From Tubiluchus corallicola (Eukaryota > Animalia > Priapulida), in assembly GCA_030141605.1 (NCBI GenBank), contig JAQGDQ010000071.1, forward strand, positions 127,787 through 191,786: DNA of 64,000 bases, written 5' to 3'. The stretch's first letter is position 1; every line of letters starts with the position of its first letter. Below the pieces are notes generated by a model. The model saw only the letters and a program-made list of their open reading frames with translations. It searched no databases and was not told the origin of the DNA. Shown in pieces: positions 1,258 through 50,901 of the stretch. The position numbers were made by a program, and so were the translations under genes.

Positions 1258-4200
1258 ATTCATTCAAGTTGATATTGATGATGTATTTTTTGGTGCATTT
1301 GGATCAAAAATGACGGAAAACGATGTGCAGGTGGGAATTTTGGCTGTGTTGCCTGCTAACTAGTTTGTAGTTCAGCTTCGAAGAAAACAATCATGTTTTC
1401 ATGCACAGTAATAAGCACGATTTTTAAATCAAATTACAAAAACCCTCCTATAATTCCTGGTAGATGGAAAAGTAATGCCTTAAGAGTTTGGTGCGAAAAT
1501 TGTTACAATCATTTTGATTTCATCCTCATAAGGTTCAAAGTTGTTTGGCCCAAACAAAAACACATATTTTGATAATTCATTTTCACATTAAATTTAGAAA
1601 ACAAAGTTTTCTAAGACCTGTCTAAGCCATACTAAACTATCTCATGACAGTGAAAAGCAACCTTATTTCAGCACAGCAGCAAGCAACGGATATGCATTTG
1701 ACAAACACAAAAAAATATTATAGATCTTCCAGTAAACCTCAAGTTAACTTTTCATCACAACCTGATGGACAATGCAGCTCTGAGACTCGCAGTTTGAGAA
1801 AGACTGTTTTGACTTGCCAAGAACTAATGGTAAAAGGATTACCTTAAAACATAGGATAATTATGTGTTAAAAGGTACTGTCTTATTCTGCAAAAAATATA
1901 TTAATATCTGAAAATTGTTTTAAATTAATGGACTCCCTCGGTTGCAACTAGAAAAGGGTTCTTCAGTATATGCTGCTTGTTTTCAGAAGCTGAACTTATT
2001 AGTTTCCTGCGTGTACTTAAGCGAGATAGAGTTACCAATGAAAATTGCTAAACACCTCAAAACATGCAGAACAAGAGGAAAAAGCTGCGATTACGAGGTC
2101 ACAGATATTATTACCCTACCTGTAAACTATTGAATAGCTTATCTGGGTATTGGTATGCGATTAGCTGTGAGTGGCTGAATAGACCCTCCTGTGGACTTAC
2201 TAGGTTTGTCTGAAAATTTTGCCTGAAATTTGGCTAAAAATGGAGTTACTAGGTTTTTTAATTTGCCTGGAACTCACCTAAAATGCATCAGATAGTCAAA
2301 GCTGGTGCTAAGATGCAAAACGGTACTCAGTATGCTCTGATATCTGCAATTTAGTTTTGCCCAAAAATGGATGTATACTAGGTTTTTCCTAGTGTAAGGA
2401 AAGGAAGCTCAGCATAGCTATATCTAGAGGAGTAACGTTATTATCCTTCTAGTAATAACACCTTCGATCATTTAAACAAACACGTGCAGATACAACAACC
2501 GGGTTTTCAACATACTGCTCTAATTACTTAATTTAGGGAAAGTAAAGCAACTGGACAACTTTGACAGGAGCACCAAGACAATAACAAAGTTGTCAAACAA
2601 TTAAAAAACAACAAACTGTCTCAATCCCACATAAGCATACCGTTATGATGAAGTGGCGAAGTGACTGTAAATGATGATGATTTTTTTTTTACTTTCAGTC
2701 TCTGATAGATACGCAACAAAGAATTCGAAAATATGTTCGTAATTTCTCCTTCTTTCTGGGCTACACCGGAAGTTATTACCACACAGGGACAGAACAGGAA
2801 AAGAAAGGAGACGATGCACTGATAAGTATGATTACTCACTACTTAGCATATTCCTAATATCAGTTTGCATAGTTAGTAAGTTAGCGCACGTTCAACTGCT
2901 TGTGGTGTATTATCAGAATCAAGGCGGAATGTGTAGCTCTTCATTTTGCTCTAGTTGGGCTCTATTTCCTCCTACAATTATTGAGGTAGGACCACATATT
3001 TTCATACATAACTGAATGGTGTTGAGGTTCTGTACAGGGTGACATGGCTGAATATGGGTCAGGTGTACGTGCGAAAATCTTGTGCTAGGGGGAGAAAACT
3101 GAAAATGGATGGGTTGTACAAACATATTCCAGTTTTGAAGAACAGCAGGTGTCAGTGCATCAAGGCCTTGATGAAACAAATTGAATGGTATAGAGATTGG
3201 TTGACCACAGGCACGGAAGTCACGAGTCCAAATGAGTGACTGATTGGCTGGCTGGCAGCCAAACGTAACTTCGATAGCAGCTTCTAGCTTTTAGAAAGAT
3301 GCAGGTTGCAGGTTTGCTTGTAGGTTTTTCTGCTCTTTTGGAACGTTATTTTATGGTTCAGCTGAAAACGAACTTGCTTGGTTTTTTAAATAAATGTTTG
3401 ACCCTTGATCCCGCTATGTCAAAAAAAAACGAAATTAGTACGAAAGGACAGCCAATTGTTGAAGAACCGTAATACGCAAGAGTCTCAGAACAGTAAATCC
3501 CTTCGAGCTACGATTGGCTGTTTCAATGACGTCATAATATGTGAGGCTCCGAGAGCCCTTCAAGTGCCTGGTGAGGCTCTTGAAGGTTCGCTTACCGTTG
3601 CGTTTAGCACTTTAATTATCGCATCATTAACTGTATTTACTTCTTAGACTCACAGTTTTTTTTTTCAAATTTGTGTTTGTATAGTGGTGACATAGTGACA
3701 TACTGATGACATGTCATATACAGAAAAAAATAAAAACTAAGTAGCACCTTACAGCCTTAAAGCATCTATATTATCTATGATTTCTCTACACTGTTACTAC
3801 TAATTCAGTATAATTATCTGGATAAAGCAAAAAATATAACAAAATTGATAATAACACTTCATGAAGACTACACATATTTTACATAACACATGCATGCCAA
3901 GAAAGACCATTAATTGAAATTACTTAAGACTTACAAGATCTTGATTGCTGTGGTACACGGTACTCATAGTGTTTGGGTTTATCAGAAGTCAGGTAAATCA
4001 AGCAGCATAACTATGCTCAGACATTATGCGAGGTAGTAGTGCAACTGCGTCATACGCGTTTACAATCTGCATTCAACAACTCCGCCATTTTAATTTGACG
4101 TCATCAATGGGAAGTCCAGCAGCGAACGAGAATGCGCAGGGATTTACTGCCCCGAGACTCTTGTAATAATAAATCCAATGAAAAGCATAATGAGCCTCAC

Positions 4201-49860: not shown

Positions 49861-50901
49861 ATGAGACAATTAAATTTTAAGTCATTTCTTATTTTTTGCT
49901 GTTCATTTGTGCTTTTTTACATTGCATTTAAGGAATTTTGTGCGTATAAAAGACTTGACAAATTTGCAAATACGGAAATAGTTTATAGCAACGAAAAAGA
50001 ACGTGTAAGAGCAGCGAATGGAACAACCAAAGAGCAAAAATCAAGTGAGATGTTTAAAACTGTTAAAATGCAAAAAATTATGGAAATGGTCAACAACGTC
50101 GAGAAAACTGGGAAAATTTTGCACGTGGCGATGATCAATGAAGGCTATCTTCCATTAACACACAACTGGTTGTGTAATACGCAGATTCTTGATGTCCATG
50201 ATCAACTGCTGTTTATTGCAACAGATGAAGTAGCATATACTTCATTACAGAAATCGTCGCCGAAAGTAAATGTTTTTAACTTGCACACTTTGAGCAAACT
50301 CAACGAAAAATACACATTTGACACATGGAATTATAAATATTACTTACTACTCAGAGTAAAGTTTTTGCTGGACTTACTAAGGCACAACGTTTCTTTTGTA
50401 CTTTTTGAAACAGACAGTTTGTGGTTAAGAAGTCCAAATGATCTTATAAAAAACTATAGTAATTATGATATCATTAGTGCCCAATTTAAGGGAGTAAATT
50501 TGAAACAACAAAAATATACAGTTGGTTACATTTTTCTCAACTCAACAAATGAAGGCATTAAAATCTGGAGTGAAATGATAATTCGTTTAGAAAGCGAAAT
50601 CAATAATACTTATGAACAAATTATTCTCGACAATTTGTGTAAACAGAAATTTTCTTCAGCCAAATGCACATTGCTTCCATACCAGTATGTTACTGATGGG
50701 GTCTGGTACAAAATGAATCTTAGCATGAGGGCAAAAATTGTTCCTAATCCTTACTTAATAAATAACAACTTTATTAAAGGAATACCTCAAAAAATGGCTA
50801 GGGCAAAAAGATATGGTCATTGGTTCTTGGACGAGCATGCAAAGTGTAATCTAACTCATGTAAAGTATGTAATGCAAAGATTCAAAATTTCTGTGCAGTA
50901 A
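49861..50901 (+). CDS. Intronless nucleotide-diphospho-sugar transferase-like protein (PF03407/GT77-like), 346 aa
   Basis: ATG-started 346-codon ORF with TM FLIFCCSFVLFYIAF; MINEGYLPLTHNWLCNT, LLFIATD, RVKFLLDLLRHNVSFVLFETDSLWLRSP, GYIFL, EQIIL, INNNFIKGIPQKMARAKRYGHWFL. This matches the recalled pattern of this family. Confidence 0.82.
   Translation: MRQLNFKSFLIFCCSFVLFYIAFKEFCAYKRLDKFANTEIVYSNEKERVRAANGTTKEQKSSEMFKTVKMQKIMEMVNNVEKTGKILHVAMINEGYLPLTHNWLCNTQILDVHDQLLFIATDEVAYTSLQKSSPKVNVFNLHTLSKLNEKYTFDTWNYKYYLLLRVKFLLDLLRHNVSFVLFETDSLWLRSPNDLIKNYSNYDIISAQFKGVNLKQQKYTVGYIFLNSTNEGIKIWSEMIIRLESEINNTYEQIILDNLCKQKFSSAKCTLLPYQYVTDGVWYKMNLSMRAKIVPNPYLINNNFIKGIPQKMARAKRYGHWFLDEHAKCNLTHVKYVMQRFKISVQ

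Follow-up and report, generated by a model that had tools for sequence, protein, structure and literature searches.

Six consecutive, non-homologous Golgi-type glyco-enzyme genes in the priapulid Tubiluchus corallicola: a candidate pathway cluster for a heparan-like polysaccharide

Whether neighboring genes of an animal genome may encode successive steps in the synthesis of one polysaccharide is the question raised by a 64,000-nucleotide stretch of DNA from the priapulid Tubiluchus corallicola (GenBank assembly GCA_030141605.1, contig JAQGDQ010000071.1, forward-strand positions 127,787 to 191,786), which was analyzed as a whole, is called the window here, and is numbered from its first letter. 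Its DNA has a GC content of 34.7% and contains spliceosomal introns, microsatellites, and retroelement fragments. Six genes of six families lie in a row within it, encoding an N-deacetylase/N-sulfotransferase-like (NDST-like) protein, a methyltransferase with an epidermal growth factor (EGF)-like segment, a glycosyltransferase of family 49 (GT49), an EXTL3-like protein, a GT-A glycosyltransferase of the GnT-I fold, and a GT77 protein. On balance, these genes probably act together, as a cluster particular to this lineage, in making one secreted polysaccharide that would be heparan-like, sulfated, and methylated. The features, with the exon models of the multi-exon genes, are as follows.

1258-18315, + strand: NDST-like N-deacetylase/N-sulfotransferase; last 13 exons, 572 aa, the 5' third lying upstream of the window; exons 1258-1330, 2699-2825, 4768-4880, 5907-6002, 7212-7301, 8048-8176, 8774-8956, 10475-10707, 12688-12865, 13011-13181, 13781-13890, 15103-15234, 18231-18315
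20107-21114, - strand: EGF-like plus class I S-adenosylmethionine (SAM) methyltransferase; intronless, 335 aa; predicted Golgi glycan O-methyltransferase
24794-28121, - strand: GT49 (B4GAT1/LARGE-type) putative beta-glucuronyltransferase; 3 exons, 451 aa, DVE motif; exons 27216-28121, 25919-26045, 24794-25116
28122-30578, no strand: interval between the start codons of the head-to-head GT49 and EXTL3-like genes; 2,457 bp, defined from orientation and gap
30579-42032, + strand: diverged EXTL3-like GT47/GT64 protein; 6 exons, 807 aa; exons 30579-32253, 33584-33738, 34435-34562, 35317-35461, 36573-36701, 41840-42032
45119-46177, + strand: GT-A glycosyltransferase; intronless, 352 aa, EDD motif; predicted inverting transferase
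49861-50901, + strand: GT77-like nucleotide-diphospho-sugar transferase; intronless, 346 aa, ETD motif

A sequence-only reading of this DNA had described six consecutive glyco-enzyme genes at this place, and they were confirmed: families were assigned by Pfam, sequence matches to the Protein Data Bank (PDB), and fold searches, and the frames are unbroken in all six genes. In the exon models, the ends of the 19 introns were moved to the closest AG/GT; each predicted protein is free of stops, is in-frame, and aligns to its own family. The intergenic gaps measure 1,791, 3,679, 2,457, 3,086, and 3,683 bp in order along the window. Pairwise alignment of the six proteins gave a best cross-match of only E 0.35, and no second copy of any of the six genes was found in the window, in agreement with the earlier statement that they are not a tandem paralogue array; because the six genes represent six families, tandem duplication provides no explanation. 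The claim that these are the only recognizable genes in the span also stood, as the 190 other stop-free frames of at least 58 aa gave three Pfam matches, each to a reverse-transcriptase (RT) fragment, and no other Pfam-detectable gene was found between the six, although genes composed of short exons alone would escape such a scan. A type II signal anchor had been ascribed to all five visible N-termini; four genes show it clearly (hydropathy 1.8-2.5), whereas that of the methyltransferase is borderline (hydropathy 1.6, with Pro, Arg, and Lys). The GC content at third codon positions is 0.33-0.40 in all six genes, and the intronless genes are therefore not foreign-looking. Neither EXT1/EXT2, an epimerase, nor an O-sulfotransferase was found in the window, and no transporter is in view there.

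The likelihood of such a run under random gene order was calculated with a base rate of 3.5%, namely, the number of Golgi-type candidate genes of C. elegans over its gene total of roughly 20,000. The former number is given as more than 700 (PMC7614267). Under this model, 4-6e-5 six-in-row runs are expected per genome at 3.5% glyco-type genes and 0.005-0.009 at 8%. The cluster is genuine, and chance is a very unlikely origin for it; the sequence-only reading had named an expectation by chance, given the genome-wide density of glycosyltransferases, together with absent linkage in relatives, as grounds for doubting it, and clustering beyond the chance expectation is what was found. Thus, two hallmarks of a metabolic gene cluster, at least three non-homologous enzyme genes and contiguity beyond chance, are present. 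There is thus support for a non-random grouping of these non-homologous Golgi-type genes, and the case is strengthened by the domain-specific divergence of the EXTL3-like protein and by the fusions of methyltransferase relatives with GT64 and GT77. Contigs of two sequencing runs of one sample (X1 and X2) cover all 30 bins of 12600-28300; since none of them spans two genes, the gene order rests on the window.

The EXTL3-like protein matches human EXTL3 (PDB sequence match, E 2.5e-73) and possesses the canonical architecture of an anchor, a coiled-coil stem, GT47 and GT64 domains, and the DDD metal motif. In a comparison with the best 120 of 172 homologues, the median identity of its GT64 domain to 87 homologues is 51% (maximum 55%) versus 77% among named canonical proteins (minimum 62%), and that of its GT47 domain is 39% versus 45% among named canonical proteins. 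In GT47, 54 of 62 invariant columns are kept. In GT64, 79 of 128 are kept, the missing 34-residue linker accounting for 18 of the losses and substitution for 31; counted over aligned invariant GT64 columns only, 72% are kept, versus 84% in the next-lowest homologue. The invariant 34-residue inter-domain linker is absent from the model and was not found in intron 1 or in the rest of the window. The protein retains both cysteines that plausibly correspond to the dimer disulfide. The motifs that follow DDD are recast, as is the C-terminal tail; the basic tail is shortened and rearranged, and its final 22 residues include 4 Lys/Arg, whereas 82 of 89 full-length homologues have 6. As described for human EXTL3, the basic tail serves as an exosite for choosing heparan sulfate (HS) core proteins; the GT47 domain is possibly inactive, and a long chain is beyond what the enzyme can polymerize alone (PMC10570366). 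On these alignments, divergence is concentrated in GT64, which is normally the most conserved domain. A new acceptor is suggested because the linker and many invariant GT64 residues are lost while the metal motif is retained, and the motifs, as distinct from a structure, are consistent with a donor side that was kept and an acceptor side that was changed. In P0044, the nearest homologue, exon 1 ends in the canonical way and the branch is half as long (0.55 versus 1.06); at phylum depth, the EXTL3 tree is unsupported. A milder, parallel divergence is seen in the Drosophila "exostosin-3-like" duplicates P0144, P0152, and P0159, with changes beside DDD and in the tail (both in P0152).

The methyltransferase matches the Pfam families Methyltransf_11/12/23, carries the glycine-rich motif I of class I SAM methyltransferases together with its EGF-like segment, and is predicted with high confidence (mean predicted local distance difference test score, pLDDT, 94.7) to adopt a class I Rossmann fold. 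Its relatives form 638 clusters at the 50% level. A Pfam scan of 35 of the 150 best matches, including all 16 of at least 560 aa, revealed that 11 of these 16 are fused to GT64 and/or GT77 (GT64 in ten, GT77 in three, both in two), and two further long relatives gave weak matches to GT8 and to RXYLT1, respectively. Local profiles run over all 150 matches recovered the identical ten GT64 carriers and two GT77 carriers and detected no fusion to GT-A, GT49, or NDST among them. Named carriers belong to Mytilus, Tetraselmis, and Chromera. As judged from domain composition, these fusions tie the methyltransferase family to glycan synthesis, and sugar O-methylation in the Golgi lumen is the activity suggested for the enzyme of the window. 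The fused methyltransferase-GT64 form occurs in an animal, Mytilus, whose proteins P0183 and P0333 possess two methyltransferase domains plus GT64; one is annotated as "EXTL3", yet no GT47 was found by Pfam in the cluster representative.

Six exons of the NDST-like gene align to human NDST1 (PDB sequence matches), with approximately 52% identity over the two exons that were counted. The first visible exon contains a DIDD motif, which we take to hold D319/D320 of NDST1. The deacetylase residues H389, H393, and H529 (human NDST1 numbering) are retained, as are the residues K614, F816, K833, R835, and Y837, which bind 3'-phosphoadenosine 5'-phosphosulfate (PAPS), and four disulfide cysteines. In human NDST1, mutation of D319, D320, H389, H393, or H529 abolishes activity, and the loop C486-G512 probably contacts HS (PMC10864358). 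Relative to the human enzyme, the PAPS-binding site bears the substitutions Q613T, T618M, and W817F, and 6 of residues 485-492 differ. To our knowledge, these motifs are nearly invariant in animals, and the classification of the gene as a putative diverged paralogue depends on that invariance and on a comparison with the human sequence.

The label "B4GAT1-like" of the sequence-only reading is established only as far as the family, GT49, for which PF13896 matches were obtained (E 2e-42 and 8e-21). DVE takes the place of DxD; the match to LARGE1 is weak (E 0.005), and DVE aligns to its DID. The GT49 and EXTL3-like genes are arranged head to head, and the interval between them (28122-30578), which contains ATT repeats and a 147-bp duplication, is possibly a shared promoter, as judged from orientation and gap. 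The closest homologue of the GT-A protein, which we assign provisionally to PTHR33604, is Priapulus LOC106817743 (43%), followed by unnamed and plant proteins, and the EDD motif is invariant in 31 of 31 aligned sequences. Its predicted model (pLDDT 84.9) finds 1fo8 as the best Foldseek hit (E 2.3e-7, TM-score 0.51), and the fold is nearest to GnT-I, MGAT2, and POMGNT1; the identity of 10-13% is too low to assign a donor or linkage, and the predicted fold suggests an inverting transferase. Plant homologues P0006-P0043 (~610 aa) possess an unannotated C-terminal domain with a weak full-length likeness to GT77. The GT77 protein of the window matches PF03407 (E 5.8e-27), has two relatives at 55% and 60%, and shares the ETD motif with all 3 relatives; the top two atlas clusters are mostly from Echinodermata. 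Downstream of it, 50902-64000 comprises 13 kb without a recognizable host gene (1 of 42 frames matched Pfam, an RT), and the right edge of the cluster may therefore be GT77; on the left, the cluster may extend past the window.

Domain fusions in relatives and family chemistry are the pointers to consecutive steps of one pathway, which could proceed as follows. GT49 enzymes transfer beta-linked glucuronic acid (GlcA). The GT64 domain of the EXTL3-like protein would add alpha-1,4-linked N-acetylhexosamine (HexNAc), and the head-to-head GT49 would add beta-GlcA, for which HexNAc, we infer, would be a new acceptor in this family. Alternation of the two enzymes could build a heparosan-like GlcA-HexNAc backbone outside the EXT1/EXT2 route on a new acceptor. 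The NDST-like enzyme may then N-deacetylate and N-sulfate that backbone, the EGF-methyltransferase may O-methylate a sugar, and GT-A and GT77 may add primer or side-chain sugars. The cluster probably arose from DNA-level duplicates of animal genes (the three multi-exon genes) together with three intronless genes of patchy families. A bolder version, which is advanced only tentatively and with doubt, is that of a new glycosaminoglycan class, in which a repurposed EXTL3 and GT49 would act as an EXT1/EXT2-independent co-polymerase, the product would be N-sulfated, O-methylated, and branched by the neighboring enzymes, and the EGF-methyltransferase family would supply the Golgi enzyme for glycan methylation that has long been missing in animals.

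Several points weigh against the single-pathway proposal. Neither GT49 (DVE) nor GT77 (ETD) has an exact DxD, the NDST-like protein was compared with the human sequence alone, and the deletion of the linker could impair the EXTL3-like protein. The ten GT64 fusions of the methyltransferase family group in a single clade (support 0.945), from which the methyltransferase of the window is excluded, in a tree of 141 of 151 domains from which 10 short or split rows, including the Chromera protein, were dropped; the fusions therefore amount to roughly a single GT64 event and two or three further ones rather than eleven. The link between GT-A and GT77 through plant fusions is weak (hhalign probability 6.9%). 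The base rate of glyco-genes in this genome may be high, which would raise the chance expectation, as GT77-type and PTHR33604 families are expanded in the annelid Alvinella, with 31 and 24 copies, respectively (PMC12403961). Contigs 86% alike at 20237-20577 and 88% alike at 27824-28184 lie on the methyltransferase and GT49 genes; further copies of both therefore exist, and the cluster itself may be present a second time.

The alternative that survives best, which is judged unlikely yet has to be taken seriously, is a glycogene island as in C. elegans, namely, duplicates or retrocopies of expanded families in one co-regulated region (for example, of a secretory cell type) that serve several glycans. 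The C. elegans "glycoclusters" C13A2.1-12, K06H6.1-6, and T15D6.1-12 are described as having an unknown function and partly correlated expression, and they mix CAZy families, methyltransferases, and transporters without a shown common pathway (PMC7614267). The window resembles them in that Golgi-type glycosyltransferases of different CAZy families are clustered with methyltransferases. The further methyltransferase and GT49 copies, the expansion of GT77-type families in echinoderms and an annelid, and the lack of introns in three of the six genes fit such an island as well. Contrary to some C. elegans clusters, in which several members of the same family occur, the window holds one gene per family and no transporter in view, and it includes relatives of two core HS enzymes plus GT49, a gene set by which definite backbone chemistry is indicated; for the worm clusters, NDST or EXT genes are not named in the main-text description (PMC7614267). 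In addition, NDST and EXTL3 act on one backbone, and the methyltransferase family is fused elsewhere to two of the neighboring families, GT64 and GT77, which argues for a common pathway rather than an island.

An improbable alternative is a recent segmental duplicate, or an accessory haplotype, on which selection has relaxed; its frames would be open but drifting, and the changes of the EXTL3-like protein would be decay, such as the loss of its invariant 34-residue linker. Seven of nine listed coding differences between haplotypes in the NDST-like and methyltransferase genes are non-synonymous (40 of 724 differences listed), a pattern that is compatible with relaxed selection, and the depth of X1 contigs, a poor measure of copy number, falls from 20-33 over most NDST-like bins to 12-17 over 26224-28300. 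Against drift stand 8.6 kb of coding sequence across the six genes without a stop or frameshift despite 49% divergence in GT64, and the retention of catalytic and metal residues in every enzyme examined. Exons are also depleted of differences: in one 1.15-kb contig of the NDST-like gene, 4 fall in 375 nt of exons versus 25 in 776 nt of introns (p 0.028; 29 of 46 differences listed), and none of nine indels listed for it lies in an exon. The differences between haplotypes are too scarce to tell relaxed selection from diversifying selection. Contig depth in both X1 and X2 is approximately half over the GT49 region (26224-28300), where contigs are nearly identical to the window, compared with 12600-16800, and in parts of this latter NDST-like region only a 4-5% diverged haplotype was seen; the pattern could reflect presence/absence or a strongly diverged haplotype inside the cluster. 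Least probable of all are ordinary NDST, EXTL3, and GT49 genes of a fast-evolving lineage, adjacent by chance or old synteny, since, even though many genomes were scanned, which inflates chance finds, and the EXTL3 homologue set contains no named nematode, tunicate, or flatworm and is biased to slow lineages, which leaves a fast-lineage origin some probability, the acceleration is domain-specific (GT64 26 points under the norm, GT47 ~6), the nearest homologue retains a canonical exon-1 end on its shorter branch, and only ~4e-5 such runs are expected per genome under random order.

The single-pathway cluster can also be compared with characterized systems. As in the HS pathway, comprising EXTL3 priming, the EXT1/EXT2 polymerase, and NDST1, the window contains GT47/GT64 with DDD and an NDST-like protein with catalytic and PAPS-binding residues; unlike that pathway, it is devoid of EXT1/EXT2, epimerase, and O-sulfotransferase, and in its EXTL3-like protein the invariant linker of canonical EXTL3 is missing, as is part of the exosite for core proteins. 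The human HS genes are not known to be linked. Vertebrate glycans are described as not methylated, whereas glycan methylation occurs in invertebrates (PMC6272458). With the matriglycan enzymes B4GAT1/LARGE1, the GT49 protein shares its domain and a type II anchor, but it has DVE for DxD, no GT8 partner, and only a weak match to LARGE1. The fusions P0183, P0197, P0231, and P0286 of Mytilus, Tetraselmis, and other eukaryotes, in which a methyltransferase is joined to GT64 (and GT77), share the methyltransferase family with the window; their methyltransferase domains group in a clade of their own, no GT47 accompanies their GT64, and they are uncharacterized. The octocoral briarane terpene clusters are likewise pathway-type clusters of non-homologous enzymes in animal genomes; in contrast to the window, they make small molecules, are conserved across species, and have been demonstrated biochemically (PMC12685057), whereas the present cluster would make a Golgi polysaccharide and is known from one window. 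With these octocoral clusters and the glycogene clusters of C. elegans (PMC12685057; PMC7614267), the rarity that the sequence-only reading ascribed to pathway-type clusters in animals was overstated. Mixed animal glycogene clusters are already known from C. elegans, and what is new here is this particular gene combination; no description of an animal cluster of NDST, EXTL3, and GT49 relatives was found in the literature searched, most subscription journals lying outside the search.

The genes of animal polysaccharide pathways are normally scattered, so that such pathways are discovered one gene at a time, and a cluster would yield a whole pathway at once. If the single-pathway proposal is correct, the locus would be one of the rare animal cases of a pathway cluster in the bacterial style, and cluster mining, which was successful for coral terpenes, would extend to the glycans of mucus, tubes, coats, and glues. 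The enzymes that methylate C. elegans glycans "remain to be identified" (PMC7614267), and the genes described here provide testable candidates for invertebrate glycan methylation enzymes and for heparan-like backbones outside the EXT1/EXT2 route. The locus would also bear on whether nematode glycoclusters are a general animal phenomenon.

Retroelement fragments are located at 16871-17602, 39756-40034, 46732-48500, and 62500-64000, the last being of the long terminal repeat type by eye, with RT matches at 39756, 47620, and 63658, and depth is very high at 16800-18400. Tandem repeats occur in introns and in the head-to-head region, at 6284-7151 (101-111 bp), 12000-12191 (64 bp), 29077-29358 (147 bp), and 32515-32790 (35-36 bp). 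Just beyond the 3' end of the methyltransferase gene, a short high-copy element is present at 19487-19564, with copies of approximately 85-90% identity in runs X4 and X5.

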